A stretch of DNA of 64,000 bases from NCBI GenBank assembly GCA_051294905.1, contig CM119372.1, forward strand, positions 38,504,001 to 38,568,000. The letters are read 5' to 3'. Positions 4,701 through 63,655 of the stretch are shown in pieces. Under the pieces are notes generated by a model, which was not told the DNA's origin, ran no database searches, and saw only the letters and a program-made list of their open reading frames with translations. A program made the position numbers and the translations under genes. The stretch comes from Botryllus schlosseri. Taxonomy: Eukaryota. Numbering within the stretch: the first letter of the stretch is position 1; each line of letters starts with the position of its first letter.

Positions 4701-7700
4701 GACATGAATATATTATTAAACTGTATAGTGATAAATCAGTTTGTCAATTTTAGTGCCATGTATGTTGCGATCATAGCCAAAGGTGTCGGCAGATGCTTTA
4801 CGCAGTAATATTACATTCGCCACCACTTATCTCTGGGAAAATGGAAAATGCGGCTAGTCAGGTGATAACCGGGAAATCGTTTAGTTGAATAAACAACAAC
4901 AATAATGTCAATCTATTTTCAAGACACGACCACGAATTAGCTGCAGAATTCGCTCTGAGAAATAAGTCGCAATTTCTACGTATAGTGTTTTATTTTCAAG
5001 GAAAGTCATTTGTTGCTGATAGATGACGACGGGGGACCACGGGGTTCGTAACAGTCGAATAGGGTTCCGGGAAGACATAAAGGTTGAAAACCACCGCTCT
5101 ACAGGAATTATAATTTCGACCCTGTCTGCCACTGTAGGTTCCCTCAACCCCAACTTGGCGTACCACGGCATCCGAAATACATTTTTTTTTAAAGGAAATA
5201 CATTCTCATAGTCATAGAATCAATATTTTGGTAGTGATCGACCCGTAGCATGTCTCAAAAGCGCCATAAAATGAGTACGCTAAGGAATAACGAATTATTT
5301 TTTCCATCGCATGAAAGATGCATATATGACTATTATACGTCACTTACTACACAAAAATGAGTGCAACAAGACTACTCGAGCGTAACACTCGATTAGGGAT
5401 CGAATCACTCATATATATTTGATTTTGCCAAGCCCTATAGTAGGAACGTGTATTAGTATTACCAGTATACATTGTCGTTCACAATTGTGACAAAACCAGA
5501 TTGTCGTGGCGAAAAGTAATTCATTATATGAAGACATGTGCCTAAATAGGATTACGTTGAATACTGCTGCGTAATGAAAGATGTACCAGTCGACCTCGAA
5601 TGAGTCGTACCATGGGGAATTCGTTACTGGGATTATTCAAATCAGGGTTTCCGAAATGATATCGAATTACGTCAGTTACGACTGGGGTCGAATGGGTATA
5701 CAACATTAGGAAATTCAGTATGCGGTTGTCGATGTGTAATGTTCCAATATTAGCAATTCGTAGCATTTATAAATAAGTGAATGTCAAAATAGATCCACAA
5801 TATCTTGACTGACTCCTGTACTCGACAGCAATTTTCTGATGAGTCACAGCTAACGACTGCATGTGATAGGGTGATTTGAAAGCGTGCATAATGGAATGGC
5901 ATTCGATGAGGCGTGTTTGTAACTGTCAACGGGTATAAGTAAAATAATATAAAATATTTGGTACAACCACCAGTTAATTAAACATTTCATCATTTCAAAA
6001 GGCACAAGATTGATATAACAGAAAAAGATAATAAGTAAGGTATCGTAACGACTTGAAGTATTCGTTCATTCCAACACGCTCTTGATTGTTCTAAAACATG
6101 AAAATAAGAGGAATGAACAGCTGATAGCATAAATAGGATGAGAGATGAAAATGAAGTTGCAAGTGTCGCTTGGTGAAGTATAGATATGTCAGATCGCGGC
6201 CCAGAAATCTCGAGCACTGATTAGTATTACTTCATTGTTGGATTGCATACGGCATAAAGTTCCAGACTCCACAGTCGTATCAATCGAACTTGCTACAACG
6301 ATTGTTCCTCCTCCTCCTGTAAGTTCCGAACTTGCGTGCGTATTTGTAAAAAGTTTCGGTTGCAGCCATTGGGTACATTCGAGTAAGTGTAACGGGTAGG
6401 TAGCTAAATGAGATTGAAGTATTGCAAAGCTGCAGTACCACATGAGTACTGTTATGTTGCAACGCTGCTGAACGTAGATGAGAATTGCGTCCGGTTGTTT
6501 TACGAATACTACTTTAGGCAGCTCACTACTATGGTGGTCTCGCATCGTGACGAACATGCACTCTGAACGCATATGAATGAGTAGACTATATATTACTAGA
6601 GCTGAGTTACACATATGATCAGGGTAGGTCAAATAATTTAACCTTGTGGCTCAACTTCAAGTAGAAGTAATGCCGTGTATTTATACTTAATCGCGAGTAG
6701 AAGTAGCAATTTCAAATATATGTCCAACTACCTTGAGGGAAAAAATAAAGATGCAACCTGTTTTCCAATAAGTCGTTCAATAGTAGATTTGGTCGATACA
6801 TGACCGAAACAGCACTTCGTCAGCCACCCAAATTGTTGGTCTTAGGTCAAAATAGGGTTTTAAACCAAACATCTGGGGGATTTGCCCCCAGACCCCCTAC
6901 CAGGCTCTCCGTTTTTACCGCTGCTTATCAGTAAGATCTGCAGTACTGTTCCGCGATTTAATCGGCCAATATGATCGGGTATTGTATATATATTGCCATC
7001 AATTTTTTTATTCTCTCTCCTCGCGTAATCCGATTTACCGGCAGAGCTGTGTGAGATGTCTTGGCAGGCGCCCGCAAATAGTATTTGAACTTATTCGGGC
7101 AGGACCCGTTGGTATGATGATGTCGTTACATGATGTTATTTCGTCAACTCTTGTCTTCTATGTTAAAAGATATTGAAATTGAAATTTGTGGTAATTCACG
7201 AAATAGGTTTGCGGGGTTTGGGGTGCGGCAGTTACGGTCGTGGGTCGATAAATCCGTGAGCAGATAGTCGGAGGTGGACACTTTCGAAATTGCAGGATGT
7301 ATCTTCCCGATTATCATAGAATGATCACTGGCAATAGCAATACGTACACGTATTACATATATATTCAGTTACCGTGATACAGTTCTTCTTCGGCCCAGCT
7401 GTGAAGAACATTGCAGTCACAAAAGTGATGCAAACATATCACAAAACCTCATTCAAAGTATAGAAAGTAAGTAGGGTAGCCTAGAAAACTGTTGAGTAGA
7501 AATGGATGTAGTCTGAAAACCTAACCATATGAGGAAGTAATACAAGTAGGCATAAGCTACTTGAGTACTTGAGTACTTGAACACTATAAAAATGTAGAAG
7601 CATACTTCGGAACTGACCTCCCAGCTTATAATTTATTCAATTCTTAGAGGGTATGTCCATACTCTATACTTCGGCTAATAGTGTCTCGAATTTAAGTCAG

Positions 7701-12045: not shown

Positions 12046-12186
12046 CGATTAGCAGTATTTAATCACACGATTAGCAATATTCCGGATCAGCTAACTTTAT
12101 TATCTCCGCCTGAGATGCGTCCCGATTAGCAGTTTTTAATCACATGATCAGCATTCTCCCGGATCAGCTCACTTTATTATCTACGC
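12046..12186 (+). repeat. Local tandem duplication, ~77-bp period, 2 copies
   Basis: CGATTAGCAGT.TTTAATCACA.GAT.AGCA...CCGGATCAGCT.ACTTTATTATCT.CGCC occurs twice. Confidence 0.8.
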
Positions 12187-13343
12187 CAGAGGTGGGCAAA
12201 CTTTTGAGCACGCGGGCTGCATTCAACATCTGAATCCACTCGCGGACCGCACTATATAAAATTGGAATATAAACCAAAACGCAACATTGGTATTTGATTA
12301 TATAGTGAGGACATGGAGATAACATATGTGCTTATTTAAAACAAAACAAACATTGCTTTGATGATACCGTACACGGGTCAGAAAGATAGTGGCTAGATTT
12401 CATAGGCTGGTCGACTTCAATAACCAATTTGTCAAAGCTATAGAGATGAAAGTCGGTTGTTCCGATTCTTAGAACAGGATTAAAATTTAAATCTGTGAGC
12501 AGCGATCTGTTCATAGATTTAGTAATATCACTTATGGTTCAGTTCCAGGACACGCAATGCTCACAGAATCATAACAATGTTAGCTTCAAACACGCTTATA
12601 CTATGTCTAGATAAAATATAAATCCCCAAGTCTACGCATAAAGAGAACGAATCCATTTAAGACACGCGCGAATCGGTTTTTATAAGCACATCACTGAAAT
12701 AATGAAAACTGGAGTGGCTAACCTGAAATCCCACTCGTGATCCGAATTATGTCAATCTCGTTTAGGATTTCTGTGTTGTTTAGCAATTGAAACCTTTCAA
12801 ACTGTGTGGGCCTTGAGATCGGGCTGTCGCGCCCGAAATTAAACGTAAAAAATATTATAGGTAGTATCTACCTTAGAACGGTGGTTCTGAAACTTTTTAA
12901 GACACGACCCCCCCCCCCCCTTATGATGGTGAAAGATTTCGCGTCCCCTTATCGTCATATCACAAAACGCAACCAGGCTGCTAGCAACTTAATAAATAGC
13001 TTGATGGCATGGAAGGTTACGACTATGGATGAGAGATTTCTAAATGTGAAATCCAGACTAAATAAAGAGCAACCACCATGAATTTGTCGGTAAATCGCGC
13101 GGAACGCGAAAATTTTTTCAGTTGAGCTCAGCATCGCGCCCCACTTCTGATGCTTTCACGCACCCCAGTTTGAGAACCACTGTCTTAGAATTATCTTTGT
13201 GAAATATACTAAGAAATAGTTTAATAAAGTCCCTGCTTTATATCGATATTTGGTACGCATTCTATCAATATTTTTTAAAAGTTTCTTTAGACTCTCGCGG
13301 GCCGCACAGAACGGTGCTGCGGGCCGTAGTTTGCCCACCCCTG
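12187..13343. mobile_element. hAT Charlie-type MITE nested in 10669-13699
   Basis: TIRs CAGAGGTGGGCAAAC / GTTTGCCCACCCCTG. TSD ATCTACGC / ATCTACTC (7/8). Confidence 0.85.
12879..13182. mobile_element. Small Charlie-type MITE, third nesting level
   Basis: TIRs CGGTGGTTCTGAAACT / AGTTTGAGAACCACTG. TSD CCTTAGAA / TCTTAGAA. Same family as 30489-32137. Confidence 0.85.
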
Positions 13344-14516: not shown

Positions 14517-17019
14517 GGGCCATTCCATACACAGACAAACGATGTTCACATTACTACCTCTTCAAATCTCCTGAAATTTGGTACACGAAGAGATGAGCTT
14601 ATTCCAAACAGGATGAACTTTATTTTATGAAAATTGGACTTTGGGGTCAAAAGTTACGTCACTTTGAAAATTGACAATTTTCTGCTCATTTTGGATCTGC
14701 ACATCTCAGGCTTTATCAATGAAATATTCAAGAAGGTGTAGCTAGATGTTGGACGACAGTTGAGATACGGCACTTGGATTTATCTGAAGCTTGTCTGATC
14801 GTCTATATTTCCAAGTGAAATTTAATACCTTGTAGGTTAGTGTCATAGGTAAAATTGAGAGGGAAATCTAAAATCAGTCAGGCGTTACACGATTTAGACA
14901 GCGGATTGCTCAAAAACATATTAAAATATTTTGGAAAAAAGGATCTTAAATGAAAGTTTGCTTCAAGGAGAATTCGTTCATTGCTGTTTGATTTTGGTTT
15001 TGAAACTGTGAAATGATGAAATTGCAGTTTTAAGAGCACACTTCATTTGTACATAAAAAGGCAGTACTAGTAGGGCGTGTTCGGACATCGAGTCTGGGGT
15101 GTGTGCGGGCACCATGTCTGGGTGTGTTCGGACTGTTGCCATTCGGACATCGTGTCTGGGGTGTATTAGGACATCATGTCTTGAGTGCGTTCGGAAAGTT
15201 TTGCAACTCGGACATCGTGCCTAAGGTGTGTTCGGAATGTGTTTCCATTTGGACCTCGTGTTTAGGGCGTGTTCGTACATCATGTCTGGGGTGTTAGGAC
15301 TGTGTTTTCACTCGGATATCGGGTCTGGAATATGTTTGTGCTGCGGCAGACATGCCTCAGACCTGATATCTGCGCACTATTTTTATCCGGACATGCTCCG
15401 GTGCTGATACCTGCGCACTAGATACCCCCAGGCATGGTCCGGACTGGATATCTGCACGCTTAATGGACACAGACATGCGTCAGACGTGATATCTGCGTCC
15501 TAAACGACGCATGACCTATATATGACCTACATCTGTAGTTCTTGCTGATATCTGCGATCGCTGGGTAGTGGGTATATCCAAAGCAGTGATAGATGAGTAT
15601 ATGTTCGTGATGCGCAGTATTTTACTCTGGACATGCTTCGGAGCTGATACCTGCCCACCAAATACTCCCAGGCATGGTCCGGACCTGATATCTGCGCGCT
15701 GAATGGACACAGACATGCTTCGGACGTGATACCCGCGTCCCAAATTACGCCTGAACTATATATGACCTCTATGTTTTCGGCTTTTGGTGATATCTGCGAT
15801 AGCTGAGTATATCCACTGTAGCGATAGCTGAGGATATCCACAATTCCACATCCACAGTAGTGGTATCTGTGATAGCTGAGCATATCCACAGTAGTGATAG
15901 CTGTGGATATACTCAGCTATCACTACTGTGGATAGACCCAGCTATCGCAGATATCAGCAAAAACCGCAGACATATGATATAGGTCATGCGTCGTTCAGGA
16001 CGCAGGTATCACGTCTGACGCATGTCCGTCGTCCATAAAGCGCGCAGATATCGTGTCCGGACCATGCCTGGAGGTATTTAGTGCGCAGGTATCAGCACCG
16101 AAGCATGTCCGGATAAAAATAGTGCGCAGACATCAGGTCTGAGGCATGTCTGGCGCAGCACGAACATATCCCAGACACGATGTCCGAGTCACAATACAAT
16201 CGGAACACACCCCAGGCATGATGTCCGAACACCTCCAGACACGATGTCCGAGTTGCAACACATTACGAACACACCCTATGCACGATGTCCGAGTTGCAAA
16301 ACTGTCCAAACGCACCCAAGACATGATGTCCTGAACACACCCCAGACACGATGTGCGAGGAGAAAAACAGTCTGAACTCACCCCAGACATGATGTCCGAA
16401 TGGCACACAGTCTGAACACACCCCAGACATGTTGCCCGCACACACCCCAGACTTCATGTCCGAACACGCCCTACTAGTACTGCATTCCCATGTACAAATG
16501 AAGTGTGCTCTTAAAACTGCAATTTCATCACTTTACAATTTCAAAACCAAAATCAAACAGCTATGAACGAATTTTCCTTGAAGCAAACTTTCATTTAAGA
16601 TCGTTTTTTTCCAAAATATTTTAATATGTTTTTGAGCAATCCGCTGTCTAAATCGTGTAACGCCTGACTGATTTTAGATTTCCCCCTCAATTTAACCTTT
16701 GACCCTAACCTACAGGGTATTAAATTTCACTTGGAAATCAGACAAGCTTCAAGTAAATCCACGTGCCGTTTCTCAACTGTCGTTCAATATCTAGCTACAC
16801 CTTCTTGAATATTTCATTGATAAAACCTGAGATGTGCAGACACGAAATGAGCAGAAAATTGTCAATTTTCAAAGTGACGTAACTTTTGACCCAGAAGTCC
16901 AATTTTCTTAAAATAAAGTTCTTCCTGTTTGGAATAAGCTCATCTCTACGTGTACCAAATTTCAGGACATTTGAAGAGATTGTGATGTGAACATCGTTTG
17001 TCTGTGTATGGAATAGCCC
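14517..17019. mobile_element. 2.5-kb foldback non-autonomous DNA transposon, Sola2-like
   Basis: Arms over 1 kb, beginning GGGCCATTCCATACACAGACAAACGATGTTCACAT and ending ATGTGAACATCGTTTGTCTGTGTATGGAATAGCCC. 4-bp TSD TTTC (14513-14516, 17020-17023). Internal minisatellites (CGGACATCGTGTCTGGGGTGTG-like) and a central hairpin near 15905. Confidence 0.8.
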
Positions 17020-25113: not shown

Positions 25114-25728
25114 TAGGGCTGTTCAAAAATATCTTTTTTTCCCGGATTCCAGCCATTCACTGATTAAATTGTCAGGTTACCCTAAAAAACGCTGCACACC
25201 AAATTCGGTTCAATTCTAACAAGTATAGAACTCCGCAGATCCAATTAAAATTTTTAATTTATCATGAAAAATTAAAAAAAAAATTTCAAATTTTTCTGCC
25301 AACCCCATGAAATTGTTGAGCTGTCTTCAAAGACGTTGCAAAATAAATTTGAGTCAATTCCGACCAGTAGAAGCGGAGTTATGTGAGTTTTTCGATGATT
25401 ATCCTCGGATTATCCTTGATTGGTGGATAATCCGCAATTTATCAACGAAAAACTCACATAACTCCGCTTCTACTGGTCGGAATTGACTCAAATTTGTTTT
25501 GCAACGTCTTTGAAGACAGCTCAACAATTTCATGGGGTTGGCAGAAAAATTTGGAATTTTTTTTTTTTAATTTTACATAATAAATTAAAAATTTTAATTG
25601 GATCTGCGGAGTCCTATACTTGTTAGAATTGAACCAAATTTGGTGTGCAGCGTTTTTTAGGGTAACCTGACAATTTAATCAGTGAATGGCTGGAATCCGG
25701 GAAAAAAAGTTATTTTTGAACAGCCCTA
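25114..25728. mobile_element. Fully palindromic hAT MITE, 615 bp
   Basis: TAGGGCTGTTCAAAAAT ... ATTTTTGAACAGCCCTA, with ~300-bp near-perfect arms. Perfect TSD CTGTATGT. Confidence 0.95.
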
Positions 25729-47964: not shown

Positions 47965-49648
47965 CAGTAAAGCATTGCACTGGTGCCGTTTAAGATTTCA
48001 TTTGGATGTAATTTTGTCGTAAAAATAAGCTTTTCATTATTAAAATCGTAGACACGTCTCATTGCACGCGTACGAAGCAATATCTGTTTTAGTTCCCTTT
48101 CAGTCAGGGACCTTTGTAATAAAACATTTCGGTGAATCATCAATTTCAGTATATCCGATGAACACAGAAAACTGAAGCAAGTGGACAGAATGAAAGATAG
48201 ACATCAGTTGAGTGCCTGCTATTCAATACTTTACCTGTTAATTATAGAGCTATTTGTTTAGTAGCTATTTAATCAGAAATAAACTGTCAGCAGATTAAAT
48301 TCATTCCTTGTTGAGCGAGGATTGTAAAGAATGCATGAAATGCTCTATTACACTCTATTATAATTGGCGAATTATTTGCATTTGACGTTTATATAGCCTC
48401 CTGTTAAATACTTCCTTGATTGCGTAACGTGAAACCCACCCCGCTGGAAATAATTTGGTATGGAATTCTGAGGCAATTTAAGCCTGCCCAGGTCGCATTT
48501 ATTATTATTTTCCTGGAGCTAATGTCCTATATCAAATATTGAAAATAAGGATACCCAGCTATCCTCATAATTTTCTTCCATAAAACATACAGCTTGCTGA
48601 ATAAAACTAAAATACAGTTCGAGATCGAGGTAGGCCTATGCAGTAAGGCATGAGTAATTCCTAGATGTCATTCAAAACACGATAACTATGGAATATACTG
48701 AATAATGAACGATGAGCCATATGTCCGAGAGAAAGATTTATTTTCATGCAATAGAAATACAAGACAAACAGACGGCAACAATGATGATACAAAAAAGCAT
48801 GCATGCACAGTATTCGGTATCAGATACAAATCTACACGATCTTGGATGTCACTTCACCTGGTCTGATCATACCCGCATCAAGCAGGTACAGCAGATGTTT
48901 TATCTCCTGTACTAATCAAGCTGGCTGTCCGACGTTTGAGCATGCGAAATAATGTAAAACGACAGTTGAGCATGGGGTTATTTAGCTTAGCGACAAGTGT
49001 CAGCGACCTTTTGCTAGCTTCACATTTTTAATTGTATTTCCATGAACGTCATATGATCTTTTTCGAGACCCAAGACAATTAGGATTTAGATCAGTGGTTC
49101 TCAATCTGGGGAGCGCCCCTTTGGGGGGCGTGAGAAATTGACAAAGTCTGTATAAATTGGGACTAAAGGTGTGTTTCACAACCAATTTGATAAGAAGATT
49201 GTTGAAGATAAACTTATTTCGTATTCAAATAAACTTGCCAAATACAAACTCCAGCAGTCACGCTCAACGGAGTATATAGGCTGATTTCAACTTCATTTGA
49301 GTAAATTCTTGATATTCCCACGTGTAAGTCATTCATTACTTCATAGCTTTGGCAGTAGCCTAAAGCTCGGTGCGCTGGGTATAGCTGTTGTTAATAGCTG
49401 GCGAACTGCAATGCCTAAGACAGACTTAGATGCAATATAGATTACCCGGTTTTGCCCTCAATAGGGCTACCCTAAATCAACAAAATTTAATTCAATTCCA
49501 AAACTGATCAAATTTAGCATGCCAGAATAGTCTTTCTGTACCAGCATTAGGATTATAGTCTCAGTGCAACCTACCTTGAAATATATTGATGTCCTGTTTT
49601 TTATTATTTTCAAACGAATTTTGTCAACAAATGTAAAAGACTGCACAT

Positions 49649-50267
49649 TAGGGCTGTTCAAAAATAACTTTTTTTCCTGAATCTTGCTGGTTACTTGATT
49701 AAATCGTTAGGTTGCCTTAAAAAACGACGCATACCAAATTTGAATTCATTCCGACAAATATTCGCGGGTTACGTAGAGTTTGAAAATTTTGGATTTGCCC
49801 AAAAACGCAAAAAAAAATTTTTCTCAAATTTTTTTGCCAACCCCATGAAATTGTTGGGCTGTCTTCAAAAACAATGCAAAACAAATTTGACTCAATTCCA
49901 AGCCGTAGAAGCGGAGTTATTCCAGTTTTTCGGTGATAGTTCATGGATTATCCACCAATCAAGGATAATCCCCGAATTTTCGAATAAAAACTGAAATAAC
50001 TCCGGTTCTACAGCTAGGAATTGAGTCAAATTTGTTTTGCATAGGTTTTGAAGACAGCCCAACAATTTCATGGGGTTGGCAAAAAAATTTGAGAAAAAAT
50101 TTTTTTTGCGTTTTTGGGCAAATCCAAAATTTTCAAACTCTACGTAACCCGCGAATATTTGTCGGAATGAATTCAGATTTGGTATGCGTCGTTTTTTAAG
50201 GCAACCTAACGATTTAATCAAGTAACCAGCAAGATTCAGGAAAAAAAGTTATTTTTGAACAGCCCTA
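49649..50267. mobile_element. Fully palindromic hAT MITE, 619 bp, same family as 25114-25728
   Basis: TAGGGCTGTTCAAAAATAAC ... GTTATTTTTGAACAGCCCTA. Perfect TSD CTGCACAT. Mirror ORFs 49695(+) and 49892(-). Confidence 0.95.
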
Positions 50268-51272
50268 CTGCACATCTTGAATGAAGTTTTAAACTTGGCG
50301 TAAGATATAGGCCTATCATATGTATAGACACTATTAGATGATGTCCGGCAAGATTTTTTTCAATTTTGGCCGTAGTCGGAATAGTACTTTTTTTATCCGG
50401 CTATAGTCTTTATTGATAAGCATGACTTATGTAACTAAATACCTACCGACCAACCAACCCCACGCAAGTAACCGCCAAGCCAGTGCGAAAATATACCAGA
50501 CATATTTATAAATTCACGGAACCACCGTACCGTGTAGGGCGGAGCATGGACCAGAGCCGGATTGGATATCCGGCCGAACTTTTTCATTTTTAGCCAGAGC
50601 CGGATAAGTAATTTTTCTGATACGGCCGGAGCCGGATCGGAGACGAACCTGACAATTGAACAACAGGATCGGAGTCAAACGAGACCGGAGAACTTGTCGA
50701 TACGATCCGCACTAGTGTAAGCAAGAGACGTAGCTTGAAGTCAGCAATGAACTGGAAGATGAAATGAAGATGAAATGAAATCAGTGAAACAAAGTCCTTT
50801 TAAAATGACATGAAACGTCGTCTTTTTCATCGGAATTAAAATAGCCATCATCAATCTATTGGTGGCAAATCCCACAAAAGATAAAACTCTGAAGACGATA
50901 GGAATAGCCTACTATTGTATTCCAAGGCATCGAAATGTTGTGGAAAAGCAGTGGTGTATTCCGTTCTGTTGTATGTTAATCCAGCTGACATCTTGCTGCA
51001 AAATGTATATCACAGTGTCACTAACCTTGAAGGATTTCAGGCATTGCTGACAGCGTGGAGGAGGTCATTGATCATATTCATCTCGATATAAGTAGTGAGA
51101 CTGATAAACCTGTATCTGTACTACAAATGAACATGTAAAATATAAACTAAGGATTTATAGTTATCCAACCACTGTAGAAATACTAGAAAACGCAGAGTCG
51201 AATAAATCAATTGGAATTTCGTATTATCTCGAATAAATGATATAAATGATCTACGTCTGCTCTCTTTCATTA

Positions 51273-51318: not shown

Positions 51319-52393
51319 TTGATATCAGTTCCTCTTTTATCTTCACTAAAATCGCAATCAAATCATAGACCATCTCTGCCACATCTCTGTCTTGTATACC
51401 TAGCTCCGTTTCAGCATTTTCCTCCTACTAGTTCAGGGGTTCTCAACCTTTGTTTAGCTGTGGCCCATTTTCCGGTTCGAAAATGTTCTGTGGCTCACGT
51501 CTTGTCCTAGAATGATATTCTTGTTCGATGCGTGGTAATCTCCAGCGCTGATATGTGGCATTTTTCTCTTACTGACCATATTTAAATGCAGACCTCTAGG
51601 CACATCAAATCGCGCAACGTGAGACGAAAATTTTCAAATTGAATAAATCTTCTTCAACAAACGATCAGCGACATAATTTTGGGCCCCTTCAAGCTCCCAA
51701 TTGTGGATTTTGGGTGCGGCAATACGGCCTGGTAGATCGTATAACCCGTGTGTGCAATATTTCGCCAGATAAAAATGAAAGAATTTGTATCAATACTAAC
51801 GCGAAGCGCATTTACCATTTTTCGGTGTTGGTTGTGTTCCTGATTTCTTTGAAGGTATGCGTTCCACAATAATTCCAGTATACCGAACTGGGATGCGTTT
51901 AGCATACATTATACAAATTGTTCATGTTTTAGTAATGACTTTCAGTGGGTTCATAAATGACGCTAATTATTTTTCGAGGATTCAAATAAACAATTTTAAT
52001 CAATACTACAAATGAACAACAATACGAAACACATTTAGCAAATTTCAGTGTAGAGCATAATCCAATTTCTTTGTGTATTATCCAAGTCTAGCTGAACAGA
52101 ATACATCTAACAAGCATATCCCAATTTGCTTTCGTGATGATCAAAGTTTTATAGTGTAAATCTACAGATCTCGCGATATTTTAAATTTAACGCATTCCAT
52201 AGAGAGTGTGAACGGATCAAATATTAATTAACCAGCGGTGTGTGAAATCGCCCGCTTCGAATCGGGGTCGAGAACTGATGAACACAGTGTGAAATGTTGA
52301 CACACTGTTATGTGTGCATGTGTTTCCAACAATAAAGCATTAGTAGTTATATAGATCGCTCGCGAATCGCCATTGTGGCTTATGGGCGGGGTG

Positions 52394-52609
52394 GTGACTC
52401 GTATTGAAAACCCGGGGTGGTGACTCGTACTTTCAGACCCCCCTTGTGGTGGTGACTCGTAATGGGTTCTTATGGGTGCGGCCGTGATTCGTACTTTCGG
52501 GTATAGGCTGCGGCGGTGACTCGTATTGAAAACTCGGGGTCGTGACTCGTACTTTCAGGTATAGGCTGCGGCGGTGAATCGTAATGAGAACTCGTGGTCG
52601 TGATTCGCA
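52394..52609. repeat. Subterminal array of 8 GTGACTCGTA-like motifs (mirrored at 61375-61590)
   Basis: Starts at 52394, 52420, 52452, 52484, 52516, 52542, 52574, 52600; spacing 26 or 32 bp. Confidence 0.9.
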
Positions 52610-55600
52610 CTTTCAGGCATCTCTCGCACGGCGTTGAATATGTATCAAGTAAATAGTCATGTGAATGAACCTTTGTTAATGTGTATATCGTAAATTATTA
52701 TATATGATGTAGTTTAGTCGTGACAAATGACCGATCGTGTTCTAAGTCTTTCCTCGCTATTGATCGCTAGCTGAATAGTACTTTCAGATCGGGTTATTCG
52801 CACCTTGTATACCGCTGTTTGCACCTACAGAATAGTCTGCTGTTCACAGTCGTGACTTCACCGCGATAGCGCGATTTTCGAATCAGTCGCATGGTAATGT
52901 TTTGCTATTTAGTTTACCACAGAGCGGTGAAGACGACGATTCGAATACCAACAATAGCCGCGTTCACATACTAACACTCCCAAAAGGTGTGAAATATTTC
53001 CTACGACCACTCACAAGATAGCACATCAGAATAGTCATCTCTCGTGGTTTGATGTTACAAAGATAGGAATCACACACAAGTAATATTTTGGTAATAAGTT
53101 TGTCGCATAACCGGCGTAGACGGTGATACCAACAATAGCCGCGTTCACAAACCAACACTTCAAAAACGTGTGAAATAGGTTACAAATCCCACGATCGCTC
53201 GCAAGATAACACCAAAGACATTACCATTTCTCGCGTCTTGTCATTACATACATCCCAATCGCTACAGTGTAATGTGTCGATGGTTGTTACTATCAAGTAA
53301 TAAGTAATGAATAACAGTACCAGCGCAGACCGTGATTCGAAAACCAACAATTTGACACTTGCCCGCGATCGGTATATGTTTCACACCTCCCGAATAGCGG
53401 CTGACTTTAGTTGCGTGATAAGATCCATGAAAATATTCAATCAATGTGTTAGTTTGTCAACTTGAAATGTAACTCACTACACAAATCAAGTTGAATCGTA
53501 TTTGAATGTATTGACGCGACCCAACTCAAATCCTTTGACAAGTCCTATTAACGCAATCTGTTGAATCGAACGTAACCTGAATATTACTGATGCCAACATT
53601 CACCCACATCGGATCATTCACACATTCCACGCCGCTGTTTTAACAGTTATAGAATCAATACCAACTATCTCTAATCCGATAATATTCAATCATTTTGGTA
53701 ATTTACCAACTTTAAATCCATTCGCGGATGTACTAAAGGTAAATCCAGATAATCCAAAATGAAATATTTGGACTTTGACATAGTCTGAATTGAAATAGAT
53801 TGACAAACATGACTACCAACTTTGATCCAGTCACATTTCAAGATCATACTTTGAAACAATCCTTGAAACTTACAACTCTATTCACGACTGAGTTTTCCGT
53901 TTATCAGTTTCAGTAAATACTATCGCGATATTTTAATGTGTTACTACACACAATAGAATCACTCAATGAAATAACACCTGTTGTAAATATTTCTAACTTG
54001 ACAACCACTTGTGCATACCGCGATCGACTTGTGACGCGATGAGTTAAATCGGGATATTTCAATCTATTTGTCGAAACCTTGAACAAACTATCAGGTTATT
54101 TTTTGTTGTAATCGAGTGAACGGAAATAGTATTACGTCTCAACATTTTAACATCTTCCCATACACAAAAGAGTAAAATACAAAAAAACCTTGTCAAGTCA
54201 ATCCGTTTGTAACTTACCCAACCAAAGCAAAAAGTATCCTTATGAAAAGTAGACAAGACTACGTGAGTAATCACCACAATCCAAAATCCATAGCAAGTTC
54301 GGTTGCATTCATAGTTCACCAACTCGTATTTTTATTCCACTGTAAAAGTCGTTACTATTCCGCAAGACAAAGAAATTACTATGTGGTATATTTTGTAAGA
54401 CAAAAGTAATTACTTCTCAGTGTCGGCGACTTGAGATTAACATAATATGTTTGAGTATACGAGATTTGACAGTCTGACCATCGTAGTTGAGAATTCATTT
54501 CTTACAATCGAACACAGGTGTTATATCAAAAGTTATCATACTGTAAACATAAGGATTGACACATTGATTTGACGTATGTAATAGTTGATCACGACTTGAT
54601 TATTAAATTATTCGCGTTAATTAGACCCGCGTTGTGTTGAAAGTTATGACAGTAACAAACTTTTCGGAAACGTTGTTATTAACATATTGATTTGTAAAAC
54701 TATACTTGTCTGAAATGTTCTTGATTTGGAAGATATTCCGTGTTGGTACAAATCACTCTGCGTATTGCGGATATCAGAAAATATTTTACAAATGTAATTG
54801 TTTCCAGTACCCAAGACTAAAGATGAAACAACAATTTCGTTTGCTGATTAACAACCGGTACAATACTTTATCATCATAATCCGCGGTGAGAATTGAAACA
54901 CTTTCGCGCATTACCCGGTGTCAAGATATCACACTAGGTGAATTGACATACAGCCGCTTGAATAATACCTAATCCGTTCGCACCATTTCACATACTTTGA
55001 TCATTACAAAAGTAAATTGTGATATGTTTGTTAGATGCATCCAATTCAGTTAGAAATGTCTGGTGCACAACAATCGTAATATCAAAAAAGTACTTGCTAC
55101 ACTGTTATTTGCTAAACGTGTTTTGCATTGTTGTTCATTTGTAGTATTGATTGAAATTGTTCTTGAATCCTCAAATAATAATTCCTGACATGAAACCAAG
55201 CCGCTGAAAGTCGTTACCATCACGAAGATACAATGTGTACGATTTTTGTCAAATGTGTCCTACCTGGCCAACAGAAAACAATTTTCACTCACTCGAAATG
55301 AAACCAATGTGATGGTCTCCATTCGATATTTTGTTTGTGTCAAATACTTTGCAATGAACACATTCGCGCGGTTGAGCTTTACATCATCAAGCTGTTATTT
55401 GTAAATCAAGATTTCGGTAAACTTGTAAATGTATCGTTTAACTAACCGACATTTAGTGATTGGGGAACATACCAGACGATACACATCCATCTCCGAAATA
55501 CTGCATTGATCTTAATTTCCATCATCGTGATAATCGAAGTACATTTCTTTCGAATTCGTAACAACCGACTATGACATGATAAATTTTTGACAAGTTATGC

Positions 55601-56499
55601 TTAGAAGATTGGTGCATCTCACGAAAAAATAATATACCACTCATATTGATACTGTTACTCCATTGATCGGTATTTTCAAACGAGTCGATTTTCAAACGAG
55701 TAAACTTTATTACTTGAGTTTCTCCGCTTAATGTAAATGTAAACTCAGCCGTCTTTTAACATCACAAAGACATTGATAAAAAGTATGGTATGACATTGTT
55801 ATCGGGTGTGATGACATTCGATCTGCATCAAAACTACCGGCTATGATAATGTCTGTGGATCGATGTTTGTATACCAACACATTGCATGCAATGTCACACA
55901 CCTCCATTTACGCGTATACTGGTGTGGGCAAACAAGCGCGACGTATGTCTGGATGGTATTTTTTCGTGGAAACACAGGGTGTAACATGTTTACTTTGAAT
56001 ATTGTTCATTGGTTTATCGATTGAGAGTTGATATCCGGATCCGGTTACATACTTTATCAGGGTTTCCGATTTCAAACTGAATGTCGAGACATACATGACC
56101 AATAAAGACACAATATAGTAAACACACGGGGGAAAACTCGACCTGGAATTGTTATCGCGATGGGTGACATAAATCCAACCGTTTTCCGAACACCGTTATC
56201 CACATATCAACCATCGTCAAAGAGGTGTTTTATTCAGACATTTTGACTCTGGAAAATCCAAAGCACGAGCCCGGACATCACAGAACTATCGAAGCCTATT
56301 GTCCAATTTTCCAAAAACATAAACGTCGATGTACAACAGCACATTGCATGTGGGTAACCGATGATTTTGATGGGTTGCATCAGCACAAGTGAATATGCGA
56401 TTACACAAATGTATTGGAGTTGTTGTTGGTGTATATTTTGTCGCTATCCGTTGTAACAATATACAAAATTATCAAATTGTCAGGTGTGTTTGTCAGATT

Positions 56500-57115
56500 T
56501 CAAAATGAAAATGGTTTTGTTACTCTAGGAAAAGCTAGATGACCAAGAGAAAATGTATTGTTACACTGGGTAAACGCCAGATCCCCCAAAGGAAAATGAT
56601 ATTTTTACTCAGGTAAACGACGGACCACCAAGTGAAAAAGGTTTGTAACCCAGGGAAAAATATATTTCCAAGCAAAAAAGGTTTGTTACCCGGGGAAAAA
56701 ATATATTTCCAAGTGAAAAAGGTTTGTTACCCAGGGAAAAAATAGATTTCCAAGTGAAAAAGGTTTCTTACTCTGGGAAAAAATAGATTTCCAAGTGAAA
56801 ATGATATGTTTAACCAGGTAAACGACGGACTGCCAAGTGAAAACGGTATTGGTACTCAGGTAAATGATAGTTTTCCAAACGAAAAGGGTTTGCTACCCAC
56901 GGAGAAAATATATTTTCAAAAGAAAATGATTAGTTACTCTAGGTAAAAGTATTTTTCCAAGTGAAAATAGTTTTTTGCTGTAGGAAAAAAAAAATAGATT
57001 TGTAAACGACAAGGGTTTGTTACTCTAGGAAAGGATAGATCGCCAAGTGAAAATGATAATTTTACACAGGTAAACGTCAGTTGTCCAAACCAGTATGATA
57101 TTTTTGACTTGGGTA
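56500..57115. repeat. 41/42-bp minisatellite in the spacer of the foldback element
   Basis: Unit approximately TTCCAAGTGAAAAAGGTTTGTTACCCAGGGAAAAAATAGAT. CCAAGTG at 56709, 56750, 56791, 56833; roughly 14 units, decaying outward. Confidence 0.9.
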
Positions 57116-60100
57116 GGTATCTTGTGTTCAACGCTGGTAGTGTGATTGGTCTTGTTAAACGTAGTTGCCGAGTTGTACAATATACTTTTCGTGCGTGTAC
57201 AATTACGAAGGGGTGGCAAATGAAATTGCTATTATGATCGTCAGAAGATTGTTGTTGTTTGTTGATTTGATTTGTCGGAGTAGCAAACCTATCATTCGCA
57301 TATGACAAGCAAAATCATTACCGCGAATACATGTAACTGGCTCGCTCGGTCTCGACCAATGCAAAATAGATGATTCGTTTTTTGAAACCGTAGCGAAGAC
57401 CACATGTAAATCGATGCGATAGACTTCTATCCCCTTACATTCAGTCGTGTCGTGTCCGTTTTAATATTTCTTGACTACATCGGAATGTCTATGTTGTAGA
57501 AAGTAAATACTTTTATGGAGTTGTGTGTTTAATGAAAGCGATTGGTTACAAGTATGTGTTGGGGAAAGAAAATTTTTTTTCTGTATGTGACAGTTTGTGA
57601 CGAAATGAAAATAGATTCGTGGTTTTAATTGAATTGTGACTGTGTTGTTTTAATGCGCTTTTCAACAGGTAGACTTGACACTGAACAACAATTCGACTCA
57701 CAAAAAATGTTTGTTGTATGATTTGTCACTGGTGTGCAAAGGGTTAGGAATATTTTTGATTTATTGTTATGGCATTGATAGAACCATCCGGAAGTGAGTA
57801 TGCTTTTCTTTCACGAAAGTTTACGTGGGTCCGTTGTAATAAATTTGTGTTAACTAAACTCGGATGGATACCGCAATTGTGCTGGACTTACACATGGTAT
57901 TCGCATACTGTACACATACAAACTTTTGTGTAAACAACTCTCTGATGTTTCTGTTAGTACTAGTTCTGTGTTGAACTATTTGATTATTAAGATACATGAA
58001 CACCCATTCAGACAATAAAGGTCTTGTGATATCGAAACAGTTTGAAAGCGCCACCAATCATTGTACAGGTTCGTAGCATGGGAATATCGATTATTTTCGT
58101 GTACCATGAATATATTTCATATACCTTTGGTAAGAAATGAGTTGCGTGGGGTAATCATACACAACCTACAAAAGTTAAACTTGTAGCGTTTGATTGCCTA
58201 CTTTTTATCAATGTCTTTGTGATGTTAAAAGACGGCTGAGTTTACATTTACATTAAGCGGAGAAACTCAAGTAATAAAGTTTACTCGTTTGAAAATCGAC
58301 TCGTTTGAAAATACCGATCAATGGAGTAACAGTATCAATATGAGTGGTATATTATTTTTTCGTGAGATGCACCAATCTTCTAAGCATAACTTGTCAAAAA
58401 TTTATCATGTCATAGTCGGTTGTTACGAATTCGAAAGAAATGTACTTCGATTATCACGATGATGGAAATTAAGATCAATGCAGTATTTCGGAGATGGATG
58501 TGTATCGTCTGGTATGTTCCCCAATCACTAAATGTCGGTTAGTTAAACGATACATTTACAAGTTTACCGAAATCTTGATTTACAAATAACAGCTTGATGA
58601 TGTAAAGCTCAACCGCGCGAATGTGTTCATTGCAAAGTATTTGACACAAACAAAATATCGAATGGAGACCATCACATTGGTTTCATTTCGAGTGAGTGAA
58701 AATTGTTTTCTGTTGGCCAGGTAGGACACATTTGACAAAAATCGTACACATTGTATCTTCGTGATGGTAACGACTTTCAGCGGCTTGGTTTCATGTCAGG
58801 AATTATTATTTGAGGATTCAAGAACAATTTCAATCAATACTACAAATGAACAACAATGCAAAACACGTTTAGCAAATAACAGTGTAGCAAGTACTTTTTT
58901 GATATTACGATTGTTGTGCACCAGACATTTCTAACTGAATTGGATGCATCTAACAAACATATCACAATTTACTTTTGTAATGATCAAAGTATGTGAAATG
59001 GTGCGAACGGATTAGGTATTATTCAAGCGGCTGTATGTCAATTCACCTAGTGTGATATCTTGACACCGGGTAATGCGCGAAAGTGTTTCAATTCTCACCG
59101 CGGATTATGATGATAAAGTATTGTACCGGTTGTTAATCAGCAAACGAAATTGTTGTTTCATCTTTAGTCTTGGGTACTGGAAACAATTACATTTGTAAAA
59201 TATTTTCTGATATCCGCAATACGCAGAGTGATTTGTACCAACACGGAATATCTTCCAAATCAAGAACATTTCAGACAAGTATAGTTTTACAAATCAATAT
59301 GTTAATAACAACGTTTCCGAAAAGTTTGTTACTGTCATAACTTTCAACACAACGCGGGTCTAATTAACGCGAATAATTTAATAATCAAGTCGTGATCAAC
59401 TATTACATACGTCAAATCAATGTGTCAATCCTTATGTTTACAGTATGATAACTTTTGATATAACACCTGTGTTCGATTGTAAGAAATGAATTCTCAACTA
59501 CGATGGTCAGACTGTCAAATCTCGTATACTCAAACATATTATGTTAATCTCAAGTCGCCGACACTGAGAAGTAATTACTTTTGTCTTACAAAATATACCA
59601 CATAGTAATTTCTTTGTCTTGCGGAATAGTAACGACTTTTACAGTGGAATAAAAATACGAGTTGGTGAACTATGAATGCAACCGAACTTGCTATGGATTT
59701 TGGATTGTGGTGATTACTCACGTAGTCTTGTCTACTTTTCATAAGGATACTTTTTGCTTTGGTTGGGTAAGTTACAAACGGATTGACTTGACAAGGTTTT
59801 TTTGTATTTTACTCTTTTGTGTATGGGAAGATGTTAAAATGTTGAGACGTAATACTATTTCCGTTCACTCGATTACAACAAAAAATAACCTGATAGTTTG
59901 TTCAAGGTTTCGACAAATAGATTGAAATATCCCGATTTAACTCATCGCGTCACAAGTCGATCGCGGTATGCACAAGTGGTTGTCAAGTTAGAAATATTTA
60001 CAACAGGTGTTATTTCATTGAGTGATTCTATTGTGTGTAGTAACACATTAAAATATCGCGATAGTATTTACTGAAACTGATAAACGGAAAACTCAGTCGT

Positions 60101-62544
60101 GAATAGAGTTGTAAGTTTCAAGGATTGTTTCAAAGTATGATCTTGAAATGTGACTGGATCAAAGTTGGTAGTCATGTTTGTCAATCTATTTCAATTCAGA
60201 CTATGTCAAAGTCCAAATATTTCATTTTGGATTATCTGGATTTACCTTTAGTACATCCGCGAATGGATTTAAAGTTGGTAAATTACCAAAATGATTGAAT
60301 ATTATCGGATTAGAGATAGTTGGTATTGATTCTATAACTGTTAAAACAGCGGCGTGGAATGTGTGAATGATCCGATGTGGGTGAATGTTGGCATCAGTAA
60401 TATTCAGGTTACGTTCGATTCAACAGATTGCGTTAATAGGACTTGTCAAAGGATTTGAGTTGGGTCGCGTCAATACATTCAAATACGATTCAACTTGATT
60501 TGTGTAGTGAGTTACATTTCAAGTTGACAAACTAACACATTGATTGAATATTTTCATGGATCTTATCACGCAACTAAAGTCAGCCGCTATTCGGGAGGTG
60601 TGAAACATATACCGATCGCGGGCAAGTGTCAAATTGTTGGTTTTCGAATCACGGTCTGCGCTGGTACTGTTATTCATTACTTATTACTTGATAGTAACAA
60701 CCATCGACACATTACACTGTAGCGATTGGGATGTATGTAATGACAAGACGCGAGAAATGGTAATGTCTTTGGTGTTATCTTGCGAGCGATCGTGGGATTT
60801 GTAACCTATTTCACACGTTTTTGAAGTGTTGGTTTGTGAACGCGGCTATTGTTGGTATCACCGTCTACGCCGGTTATGCGACAAACTTATTACCAAAATA
60901 TTACTTGTGTGTGATTCCTATCTTTGTAACATCAAACCACGAGAGATGACTATTCTGATGTGCTATCTTGTGAGTGGTCGTAGGAAATATTTCACACCTT
61001 TTGGGAGTGTTAGTATGTGAACGCGGCTATTGTTGGTATTCGAATCGTCGTCTTCACCGCTCTGTGGTAAACTAAATAGCAAAACATTACCATGCGACTG
61101 ATTCGAAAATCGCGCTATCGCGGTGAAGTCACGACTGTGAACAGCAGACTATTCTGTAGGTGCAAACAGCGGTATACAAGGTGCGAATAACCCGATCTGA
61201 AAGTACTATTCAGCTAGCGATCAATAGCGAGGAAAGACTTAGAACACGATCGGTCATTTGTCACGACTAAACTACATCATATATAATAATTTACGATATA
61301 CACATTAACAAAGGTTCATTCACATGACTATTTACTTGATACATATTCAACGCCGTGCGAGAGATGCCTGAAAGTGCGAATCACGACCACGAGTTCTCAT
61401 TACGATTCACCGCCGCAGCCTATACCTGAAAGTACGAGTCACGACCCCGAGTTTTCAATACGAGTCACCGCCGCAGCCTATACCCGAAAGTACGAATCAC
61501 GGCCGCACCCATAAGAACCCATTACGAGTCACCACCACAAGGGGGGTCTGAAAGTACGAGTCACCACCCCGGGTTTTCAATACGAGTCACCACCCCGCCC
61601 ATAAGCCACAATGGCGATTCGCGAGCGATCTATATAACTACTAGCATTATACCGGTAGTTGAATGTATCAGTAACGAAATTGTTATTACATCTTTAGCCT
61701 TGATTATTTCAAACGATTGATTTGTACCATATTAGTTGGTGAGTACATAATACCATTCTGTAATATATTGATGCGATCGTGACTAATGGATTACTTTCCA
61801 ATCAAGAACATTTCGGATATGTTAATTTAGTTTTACAAATCGATGTGCTAATAACGATGTTTCAGAAAAGTTTGTTGGTATCATAATACCGTTTACCACA
61901 ACACAGGTTCCAATTAACACAACTAATTTTCAATCGAGTACTTACCAGACAGTTGATTCTTGAGTTGTGAACCAATGTGTTAATAAGTGTGAACGTAAAG
62001 AATTTACTCACGTCGGGCTGTCTTACTATAACATCCAAGAATTCGCTTAGAAAAAATCTATTCTCGGGCATTCTTCATATACATCCAAATCTCGTATACT
62101 GAATGATAATCTCAAGTCATATTCATCCAGTAAGAATAATTATGTCTTACAGAATACCAACGACTTTTACAGTTAAATAAAAAAGACATATCATCGGAAT
62201 TTGAATACAAAAAGGATTGATCAATCTAGTTTGCAAGTCGGAGTTTGTTTTAATTCAATATAATCCAACATAGTAGTAAGAAACTCTATTCGTATTCGTG
62301 GATCTGGAATAATACTACATTGATGTCAAAGTGATAAATTACCATATCGGGATACGGTTCAGCTTTGGTTATACCGCGAGTCGCGAAAAGGAAGAATCTC
62401 GCAAAAGATTTGGGTTAGAACATATGACACTTTTCTCACAGTCTGTATATTACCAAGTCAAGCCGATGGTTGTTCCGTGATGTCTTAATTACTTATTGTG
62501 TACTACAATCTCCAAGACTGAGTGCGGTTTCTGTGATATCGATA

Positions 62545-62915
62545 TTTCTTTGTTTGAAGAGCTTCTTAGAGGTAAAGAACTTCAATATACAATTGAACAG
62601 TATATTCATATTGAAATGAATCCAAATATGTTCGGCTGACACTCGTCAGGAGTAATCGTCAGCAACTATATAGTAGAGAATTAGAAAGAACATTGTATAT
62701 CAACAATCGCATCACAAAATATGACACCACCAGCATGAAATTTCAAATGAGAGAGCGTTGATTGTGCTATTTTTGGGTGGTACACGAACTCCTTTTGTTG
62801 ACAAAGTTTTGGTTGCTGTATTTCGTAAAAGTCGACTCCAATGCACACAGATGGAAGTGTGAACGGCCCCCTCCCAACGACCAAAATCTGTCGACTCGAA
62901 GATTATTCCCACAAA
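62545..62915 (-). mobile_element. Penelope-like 3' fragment (end of GIY-YIG ORF plus pseudo-LTR)
   Basis: GGGRSHFHLCALESTFTK and QPKLCQQKEFVY match the element at 4040-4700. Degenerate hammerhead CTGACGA...GAAC at ~62621-62652. Confidence 0.8.
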
Positions 62916-63320
62916 TCGGATGCTCATAAATCGAGTGAGAGTTAACAGGAATACGTGATGAGCAGTGCTGTAGGATGGAGTGGTTTCCAGAGGCAACCAG
63001 ACAAAACAAATCGGCCAAGGAAATCCGAAATTACATTTGTTCAGTTGCGCGTAGACGTACATTAGGCTGTTGACTGCGGAAATGAGATCAGAGAAGCATA
63101 ATCCTGTTGTGATGACAGTAAAAAATCCCGACTTCATGCGTAACTAAGTAATAATCATGAGGATATTTGCGACTGACCCGACTATAGTCAAGAAAGCGAA
63201 TGCTGCCCATATTATTGACTCTTCCGTCGCGGTACGATTGGTAACATGTTCGTATTTCGAAAAATTAATCGGTGCCGCTGATAACTGGTCATAACAACCA
63301 TTGAAATTGAAATGATCCAT
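62915..63320 (-). pseudogene. Rhodopsin-like (class A) GPCR pseudogene, N-terminus to TM3
   Basis: ATG at 63320: MDHFNFNG...NFS...NRT (glycosylation sequons); TM1 IIWAAFAFLTIVGSVANILMII; in-frame TAG at 63144-63146; TM2 GLCFSDLISAV; ECL1 FPWPIC; TM3 ending LLTLTRFMSIRF (DRY equivalent); then truncated by the Penelope fragment. Confidence 0.85.
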
Positions 63321-63463
63321 CTCGTTGAACTCTATATCTATATTAATCTATTTACAGACCTAGACAAATTGAAAGAAAAAGAAACAAAATAGTGCATTAA
63401 CTACATTTTCCATATGTTTCATTTACAGCGATGCAGTAAGGGTTGCATTCAAAACAAAGAGTA

Positions 63464-63655
63464 CATTTCGTGCTGGTGACGTCATATTTTGTGTAACGAT
63501 TGTTGATATACGATGTTCTTTTGAATTCTCTTCTAGTTGCTGACGATTATCCCAGACGAGTTTCAGCCGAAAATATTCGGGTTCATTTCAATATGAATGT
63601 ACTATTCAATTATATATTGAAGTTCTGTACCTCCAAGAACCTGTTCAAAACAAAC
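63464..63655 (+). mobile_element. Penelope pseudo-LTR fragment, inverted relative to 62545-62745
   Basis: Reverse-complement alignment over ~190 bp. Degenerate hammerhead CAGACGA-GTTTCAGCC-GAAA-ATAT-TC-GGGT at ~63549-63582. Confidence 0.8.

Follow-up and report, generated by a model that had tools for sequence, protein, structure and literature searches.

The model put forward for Polintons, also called Mavericks, is that of a linear, protein-primed genome that replicates via a racket-like single strand and forms virions; to our knowledge, it rests mainly on gene content. Autonomous Polinton/Maverick elements were reportedly described by Kapitonov and Jurka in 2006. Vertebrate Mavericks, as characterized by Barreat and Katzourakis (2021, PMC8097293), carry (AGT)2//(ACT)2 or (AG)3...(CT)3 ends and a perfect 6-bp target site duplication (TSD), range in size from 12.7 to 24.6 kb, and have inverted repeats of 46 to 1,447 bp. 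Direct evidence for panhandles in protein-primed replication was still called lacking in 2025 (PMC11886824). The element described here lies in the window, the whole 64,000-nt stretch of Botryllus schlosseri DNA that we analyzed, and, like Mavericks, has (AGT)2-type ends, inverted repeats at its termini, and a perfect 6-bp duplication. It departs from the autonomous elements portrayed in PMC8097293 in having no genes and in the length of its inverted repeats, which is 3.4 kb here and ~6 kb in full copies of its family.

The element spans positions 52342 to 61642 (9,301 bp) and is bounded by two 3,444-bp arms, of which the left (52342..55785, forward strand) is the reverse complement of the right (58199..61642, reverse strand), with 0 mismatches when counted inward from the element ends. 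An alignment of 52341-55785 against 58199-61643 was 100% complementary with 2,413 nt in between; this 3,445-nt match includes one flanking base, and the true arm is 3,444 nt. The alignment and our own count of positions thus bear out the original prediction of two mismatch-free arms around a 2,413-bp spacer, and the arms account for 6,888 of 9,301 bp, the 74% that had been proposed. The termini read AGTAGTTATATAG...CTATATAACTACT, of the (AGT)2 type, and an exact 6-bp duplication, AGCATT, directly flanks both (52336..52341 on the left, by end inspection, and 61643..61648 on the right); Polinton-like termini with an exact TSD had been predicted, and both ends were verified. AGTAGT...ACTACT ends were found in all 16 elements that we examined, namely, the window copy, 13 further palindromes, and the two autonomous elements described below. 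A 17-nt terminal motif, AGTAGTTATATAGATCG (52342..52358, forward strand), starts with (AGT)2 and is common to both autonomous elements; its only two sites within the window are the two element ends, where 0.15 would be expected by chance. Farther inward, seven copies of a 10-nt subterminal motif, GTGAHTCGTA, at a spacing of 26/32 nt (52394..52583, forward strand), represent candidate protein-binding iterons, with seven copies likewise at the right end (61401..61590, reverse strand), and a 58-nt period was also detected in the left subterminal iteron region by TRF. The so-called spacer (55786..58198, forward strand) is right-arm sequence, namely, its inner 2,413 bp left without a partner, and it occurs in both arms of full-length relatives. 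It contains a 41-bp tandem repeat array of about 10 units (56628..57053, TRF), and TRF tandem repeats were confined to 52477-52617, 56628-57053, and a mirror site. Other foldback elements, unrelated to this one, are also present in the window.

As had been predicted, no ORF for a pPolB, integrase, ATPase, protease, or capsid protein was recovered from within the element. The longest stop-to-stop frame is 126 aa, none of the 13 distinct frames of at least 70 aa reached a Pfam cutoff, and no Rfam families or tRNAs were found in the element. Pfam searches of these frames, together with searches using the ORFs of the autonomous elements and a capsid-family profile, returned no transposase of any kind. 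Across 15 palindromic or related copies, tblastn with those ORFs and the capsid-family profile found nothing past the terminal 1.1 kb, while a positive control scored 1e-157. No public RNA run was listed as containing the element; in a single RNA run, 21 reads mapped to it, 19 of them only as partial fits, a result that carries no information on expression.

The predicted autonomous partner exists in the same genome: a search for same-ended elements recovered two of about 16 kb, each with the same 17-nt ends and a 6-bp duplication, one at C3:28379869-28396017 (16,149 bp) and a second, nested, at about C5:728137-744095 (15,959 bp). These helpers are Polinton-like in encoding a pPolB, an integrase, a candidate ATPase, and a predicted double-jelly-roll capsid protein within 16 kb. 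A 1,300-aa ORF matches DNA_pol_B_2 (PF03175) at 34 bits against a cutoff of 25.8 (E 2e-8) and is assigned as pPolB; since it reaches this score when scanned directly, the lack of any match in a whole-genome PF03175 scan is a false negative. A 359-aa ORF with rve (60 bits) and Chromo (35 bits) domains encodes an rve-chromo integrase. A 215-aa P-loop ORF, the candidate ATPase, scored 23.4 bits for AAA_14 and 17.2 bits for Pox_A32, both below cutoff, and 22.0 bits for RNA_helicase, just over a cutoff of 21.5. Because a 432-aa ORF had no match by sequence in PDB or Pfam, its identity was sought by fold: an AlphaFold2 model (pLDDT 88.6) searched with Foldseek against PDB returned the capsid proteins of an iridovirus, PBCV-1, Sputnik, and mavirus (E 4e-16 to 4e-12), predicting a double-jelly-roll capsid protein, and the ORF has 133 "F54H12.2-like" homologues. 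Among 23 further helper ORFs, Pfam gave no match to an adenovirus-type cysteine protease or a minor capsid protein.

The sole stretch of the window element that can be aligned with an autonomous element is 52342..52879 (forward strand), with 94% identity over the first 302 nt and 81 to 85% over 52687-52879. The helper-related part thus amounts to only about 0.5 kb of a 3.4-kb arm (~6 kb in full copies). Iterons occupy identical positions in the window element and in the helper at C3:28379869-28396017, and the C5 helper carries another iteron type. Together with the varied 6-bp duplications described below, these same-ended helpers support the core of the original prediction, a non-autonomous derivative mobilized in trans, and we consider the element very probably a non-autonomous member of the Polinton/Maverick lineage whose autonomous form resides in the same genome. 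Judging from the ends and duplications, it would be inserted by the helper integrase and replicated by the helper pPolB, with the terminal 0.3 kb as its likely cis-acting part. None of the outcomes that had been named as contradicting this assignment (an assembly or read artifact, a lack of other copies with these termini, or the same termini on an element with a non-Polinton transposase) was found.

The window element belongs to a family of at least 114 loci. Uninterrupted copies are palindromes of 12.8 to 14.0 kb with ~6-kb noncoding arms and a homologous loop of 0.9 to 1.0 kb; inverted pairs lie 12.6 to 14 kb apart, and family arms measure 5.3 to 6.4 kb and are 97.6 to 99.95% identical. Other copies with different TSDs had been anticipated, and perfect 6-bp duplications were present in 16 of 16 elements, in 15 different sequences. 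Two neighboring copies on C9 have different flanks and are therefore independent insertions. Uninterrupted palindromes are 79 to 86% of helper length, while the window copy, at 58%, falls outside the family size mode. Palindromic copies far outnumber the helpers seen here, of which there are at least two. The palindrome center holds no internal copy of the ends, so the palindromes are something other than a two-ended monomer simply joined to itself.

We asked how the arms relate to the helper ends. In C7, the arms follow sequence unique to the helper's left end for at least 480 nt, while those of the window copy, C3a, and C1b follow sequence unique to its right end for about 35 nt; in the window copy, these are the last ~35 nt of 52342..52879, beyond the helper TIR boundary. 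This pattern suggests that both arms of each copy derive from one single helper end, a reading that is weak for the subfamily of the window copy given the ~35 nt involved. The element had been likened to a copy-back or panhandle defective genome, and the likeness holds insofar as the arms come from one helper end. However, only about 0.5 kb of each arm has a counterpart in the helper, so helper genes were not simply copied back to make the element. Such palindromes may have formed when a linear element, during its replication, was copied back on itself from one end.

Once formed, the two arms evolve together. Eight copy pairs displayed 28 to 913 symmetric differences, 0 to 26 one-armed differences per copy, and 0 shared asymmetries; since what distinguishes one copy from another appears alike on both arms, the arms are resynchronized. 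Under the racket/panhandle model, a displaced single strand would snap back and its mismatches would be repaired, restoring the match between arms. The mirrored arms fit such panhandle or hairpin replication, which had been proposed to keep the arms identical, and also fit chromosomal gene conversion. Faster mutation of the loop as an exposed single strand was considered and rejected: private changes in the loop were 1.6 times those in the inner arms, yet there was no C>T/G>A excess (27 C>T/G>A versus 26 A>G/T>C).

Taken as a full alternative, gene conversion would leave the identity of the element unchanged and make its palindromy unrelated to protein-primed replication: the family would spread as ordinary integrase substrates, and conversion between chromosomal inverted repeats would keep the arms alike. 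Two patterns favor it. Arm mismatches are overdispersed in five of nine testable copies (10 measured), with long identical runs exceeding random expectation, and on terminal branches, mirrored private changes (44) already outnumber one-armed ones (23). Nevertheless, the arms have drifted in some copies (in C2c, 5.45% substitutions plus many indels), and sizable insertions remain confined to a single arm (8.5 kb in C14a, 2.5 kb in C10, and a 16-kb helper in C5), so in-place conversion is not efficient everywhere. Furthermore, since both arms hold sequence unique to one helper end, a fold-back event is needed in any case. We therefore regard this alternative as possible but somewhat doubtful.

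We also considered how the 9.3-kb form arose. Element positions 3445-6649 follow the C10 right arm colinearly from a point 28 bp away from the C10 loop, and the window copy corresponds to a ~13-kb palindrome that lacks its loop together with 2.4 kb at the inner end of one arm. The copy-specific junction at 55785|55786, which connects the left arm with the right arm at the innermost point of the latter, is blunt, shows no microhomology, and is placed 28 bp away from where arm and loop meet in full-length relatives; among 41 matches, it occurs in the window only. A second short form, C14c (9,178 bp), likewise lacks the inner part of one arm. By its sequence, then, the window copy is a center-deleted member of the family of about 13-kb palindromes and not a primary design. 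A center-proximal deletion of the type that stabilizes palindromes could have produced it, as could, equally, a copy-back template switch before insertion. In the latter scenario, which we hold only tentatively, the polymerase would copy one arm to its inner end and then switch to a point 2.4 kb back on the strand it had just made; the element would thus be born with identical arms instead of being trimmed in place from a 12.7-kb copy. Its 0 mismatches in 3,444 nt make it the most symmetric of 11 copies measured, and the position of one breakpoint, 28 bp from the arm/loop boundary, and the similar loss in C14c are also in keeping with a template switch. Against this, an asymmetric central deletion would yield the same structure and is a classic palindrome-stabilizing outcome (PMC8701086), and the blunt junction with zero microhomology resembles end joining. 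In addition, no second copy with the junction exists among the 41 matches, so there is no sign of the short form ever transposing, and a length of 58% of the helper is outside the family size mode. The center-break deletions described in PMC8701086 (citing Cunningham et al. 2003) are alike in the loss of the center, the involvement of one arm only, and the blunt junction; they are known from mammalian transgene palindromes, whereas in this case a 1-kb loop was already present in the parent form. The family offers a clean natural example of central trimming of long palindromes.

Might the family represent more than a set of trans-mobilized insertions? It is conceivable, if rather speculative, that the palindromes of about 13 kb are satellite genomes of a natural, helper-dependent kind and of fold-back origin, with snap-back renewal of their arms and a length limited by a capsid. 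The helper, resident in the host genome, would be an endogenous Polinton virus of the animal with a linear protein-primed genome; both arms would be renewed each cycle through a snap-back (racket or panhandle) single strand; packaging into the capsid could hold length at about 80 to 86% of the helper, by analogy with inverted dimers of gutless adenovirus; and the window copy, with its 58%, would mark a dead end. Five traits bear on this model: at least 100 gene-less copies, retention of the helper ends, fold-back from one end, arms that change together, and a length near four-fifths that of the helper. Replication, panhandle repair, and packaging would predict each of them. If the satellite interpretation is true, the family preserves fossil traces of replication outside the chromosome and of encapsidation, as proposed for Polintons. 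The family also indicates that Polintons, which are usually low in copy number, can sustain a large non-autonomous population.

Membership in a different superfamily of foldback transposons (FB/MULE-like, P-like Galileo, etc.), with ends that merely look Polinton-like, would match the foldback architecture and the company of unrelated foldback elements in the window, but it is highly improbable given the 94% identity over 302 nt and the shared iterons that link it to an element encoding pPolB, integrase, and capsid, the 6-bp duplications in 16 of 16 elements, and the lack of any transposase inside. An assembly or fold-back read artifact is scarcely credible: chimeric reads are known to yield perfect long inverted repeats and no public contig spans the copy-specific junction (the Logan contigs of public runs cover the repeat in 60- to 350-nt pieces, none of which bridges 55785|55786 or the element/flank joints), but the exact ends and exact 6-bp duplication, the fifteen other elements (13 palindromic and two autonomous) each with its own duplication, the abundance of the family in three DNA runs of three studies, and a flank contig from the source sample whose end coincides exactly with the element's first base all argue against it.

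Foldback transposons such as Drosophila FB and its relatives, which PMC6431247 mentions, resemble the family in their long inverted arms, little or no coding sequence, and high copy number. FB-type elements have arms of short tandem repeats and a duplication of about 9 bp; in contrast, the window element has a 6-bp duplication, Polinton ends, arms of mostly unique sequence with tandem repeats in a few short stretches only, and a partner encoding polymerase, integrase, and capsid. Snap-back and copy-back defective viral genomes are similarly palindromic, highly symmetric, noncoding, derived from one genome end, and helper dependent, although they are described mainly for RNA viruses (review PMC13506859), whereas the element here is integrated and heritable and its helper sequence makes up only about 0.5 to 1.1 kb of an arm.

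Helper-dependent ("gutless") adenovirus genomes (PMC4189039) are likewise gene-less and retain nothing but the ends of a virus with protein priming and a double-jelly-roll capsid. Undersized adenovirus genomes rearrange toward packaging size by forming direct or inverted dimers, the minimum being close to 75% of helper size (PMC4189039), compared to the 79 to 86% of the uninterrupted palindromes; the window copy, at 58%, lies below its family mode. Unlike gutless adenovirus genomes, the palindromes are chromosomal insertions in an animal. In the openly accessible papers searched, we found no published description of palindromic non-autonomous Polintons. The nearest are butterfly polintons with gene-bearing inverted repeats of about 2 kb (10.1101/2025.02.07.637071), which show that inverted duplication of one end can lengthen Polinton ends. 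These keep hexon and adenain in the repeats and are autonomous or nearly so, while the arms here are three times as long and carry no genes.

Window positions 52342 to 61642 hold a 9,301-bp palindrome whose arms, 52341-55785 and 58199-61643 in an inverted-repeat scan, are 100% complementary and lie 2,413 nt apart. One base per arm in the scan match belongs to the flank; counted from the element ends, 3,444 of 3,444 positions match. The ends read AGTAGTTATATAG...CTATATAACTACT, with AGCATT directly outside each. Stop-to-stop frames extend to 126 aa at most; of the 13 distinct ones with at least 70 aa, none reached a Pfam cut-off, and scans of the element found no Rfam families or tRNAs. These measurements of arms, ends, duplication, and frames confirm everything the original prediction described, namely the arms, the spacer, the ends, a 6-bp AGCATT target-site duplication, and the lack of genes. 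Its interpretation, a nonautonomous Polinton/Maverick derivative, is supported in its core.

Other inverted repeats also occur in the window. Two mutually related small hairpin elements at 49646-50270 and 25114-25728, one with 308-nt arms 9 nt apart (94%) and the other with 170-nt arms 275 nt apart (97%), look like a foldback MITE family. A 2.5-kb foldback at 14517-17019 has three arm blocks (283, 194, and 181 nt; 89 to 93%) around a 562-nt center, and its ends are unrelated to Polinton ends. Just right of the palindrome, an inverted repeat of 116 plus 71 nt (86 to 88%) encloses ~0.8 kb (62553-63649), and the flanking stretches 61828-61886 and 62143-62183 resemble arm parts 54644-54702 and 54329-54369.

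The terminal 559 nt of the element returned at least 62 matches in its own genome (495 Mb, 219 contigs), most of those listed being inverted pairs 12.6 to 14 kb apart. We retrieved 17 loci, which covered both ends of 16 elements. Every one of these begins with AGTAGT, ends with ACTACT, and lies between the two halves of a perfect 6-bp duplication; the duplications comprise 15 different sequences. The elements are thus a transposing family and not an assembly accident. Apart from two autonomous elements, the set consists of 14 gene-less palindromes: nine uninterrupted (12,775 to 13,955 bp), three longer solely through one-armed insertions (8.5 kb, 2.5 kb, and a 16-kb autonomous element), and two short, the window copy and C14c, a 9,178-bp copy. 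Palindrome arms span 5.3 to 6.4 kb and are 97.6 to 99.95% identical by BLAST, with substitutions amounting to 0.05 to 0.86% for nine copies and to 5.45% for a single old one, and a loop of 0.9 to 1.0 kb is homologous in 12 of 13 compared copies (84 to 98%). Five pooled searches gave at least 204 match starts at at least 114 separate loci on at least 20 contigs, a lower bound given that each scored 40 of 2,500 to 3,900 first-look candidates. The palindromes are also very abundant in contigs from three DNA runs of three studies.

The autonomous 15- to 25-kb element with the same ends that the prediction had called for exists in two retrieved copies, both nonpalindromic: C3:28379869-28396017 (16,149 bp) and a 15,959-bp element nested in a palindrome on C5, with 96.7% identity between them over 11.4 kb. 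The inverted ends of the C3 copy are ~600 bp long (98.3%). A 1,300-aa frame matches DNA_pol_B_2 (34 bits; cut-off, 25.8), a 359-aa frame matches rve (60 bits) and Chromo (35 bits), and a P-loop ATPase open reading frame (ORF) has borderline Pfam scores. A 432-aa ORF has no Pfam match and 133 animal homologues named "F54H12.2-like"; its predicted fold (pLDDT, 88.6) resembles the double-jelly-roll major capsid proteins of iridovirus, PBCV-1, Sputnik, and mavirus (Foldseek E values of 4e-16 to 4e-12), which makes it a capsid protein of that type. Pfam identified no protease or minor capsid protein among the further ORFs. Since its ends, duplication, inverted ends, length, and genes fit those of vertebrate Mavericks, for which PMC8097293 reports (AGT)2 or (AG)3 ends, 6-bp duplications, inverted ends of 46 to 1,447 bp, and lengths of 12.7 to 24.6 kb, this partner is a Polinton/Maverick. 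A whole-genome PF03175 profile search (nine candidates scored) gave no match despite at least two polymerase ORFs that exceed the Pfam cut-off on direct scan, and negative family scans of the B. schlosseri genome are thus unreliable.

The C5 case (G000:C5:715646-745645; element at 501-29724 of the joined stretch) is one in which the helper landed in its own satellite: the autonomous copy lies in an arm of a 13.3-kb palindrome and has its own 6-bp duplication, ACCGTA.

Window element and helper have in common a 17-nt end and 302 nt at 94%, and both the window element and the C3 copy carry seven GTGAHTCGTA repeats at 26/32-nt spacing between nt 53 and 233, a motif found in the window only at the two element ends. 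The C5 copy has another repeat motif at this site and nearly the same interior as the C3 copy. Behind the same 17-nt end, the subterminal arrays are of GGCATGCTAACG type versus GTGACTCGTA type (L017:2492-2930, from the C5 locus, versus L029:501-1099, from the C3 copy), with autonomous interiors 96.7% identical, which looks like a swap of a presumed protein-binding module. Only the outer 0.5 to 1.1 kb of the family arms is helper related. Both arms of the copy on C7 contain an open frame of 194/195 aa (L014/L015, joined stretch ~1054-1638 and 12173-12754) that corresponds to a 188-aa frame at the end of the helper, on the downstream side of its capsid gene; with amino acid identity of 77% and nucleotide identity of ~89%, the divergence looks neutral.

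What the short window form corresponds to can be read from its relatives. Its "spacer" sequence occurs at many other loci as inverted pairs ~1 kb apart, and element positions 3445-6649 are colinear with the right arm of the C10 copy, starting 28 bp inside the loop boundary (96.2% over 3,206 columns). The window copy thus equals a ~12.7-kb palindrome minus its loop, 2,413 bp of inner left-arm sequence, and 2 x 28 bp, ~3.4 kb in total. The junction at 55785|55786 is blunt, with no microhomology. A 300-nt probe spanning this junction had 41 listed matches; the one in the window covers both of its halves, and all others cover the right half alone, at 99%. In a contig from a different study, the arm is followed by precisely the sequence expected of a full-length arm, which demonstrates no more than the existence of parent-type copies. 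One arm of C14c (G000:C14:18728172-18738171; duplication, GACACT) is likewise missing its inner part, but some of the loop is retained. Asymmetric central deletion, the known way in which palindromes are stabilized (PMC8701086), would account for the short form; an identical structure would result if the template had been switched by copy-back prior to insertion.

Beyond the point where the helper's ends cease repeating each other, the C7 arms follow the helper's left end for a further 480 nt or more, and the arms in the window copy, C3a, and C1b follow its right end for another ~35 nt. Both arms of each copy thus carry sequence from one helper end, which calls for folding back, and either end seems to have been involved. 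Across eight pairs of copies, 28 to 913 differences are mirrored in both arms, 0 to 26 are one-armed, and no asymmetry is shared. The arms have thus been re-synchronized during family history. Such mirrored change would follow from the racket/panhandle model of protein-primed replication (as cited in PMC4196379); PMC11886824 describes panhandles as "homology-restoring," with direct evidence lacking. It would also follow from chromosomal gene conversion. Clustered mismatches in five of nine testable copies (10 measured) speak for conversion in place; drifted copies and persisting large one-armed insertions speak against its operating generally. Taken pair by pair, copies diverge by 6 to 41% in the outer 1 kb, by 2.9 to 8.7% in the loop, and by 1.0 to 3.7% over the innermost 500 arm nt, and the inner ends of the arms agree at 99% in at least 40 places. 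The elements are mosaics, with the inner arms as their most uniform part.

Gene-less adenovirus genomes offer a comparison: according to PMC4189039, genomes smaller than ~27 kb undergo rearrangement, and packaged 15-kb genomes are dimers, both direct and inverted. The family palindromes are not plain dimers, because the center holds no copy of the ends. Uninterrupted copies reach 79 to 86% of the 16,149-bp helper (n = 9, not a census), a parallel that is suggestive rather than evidence.
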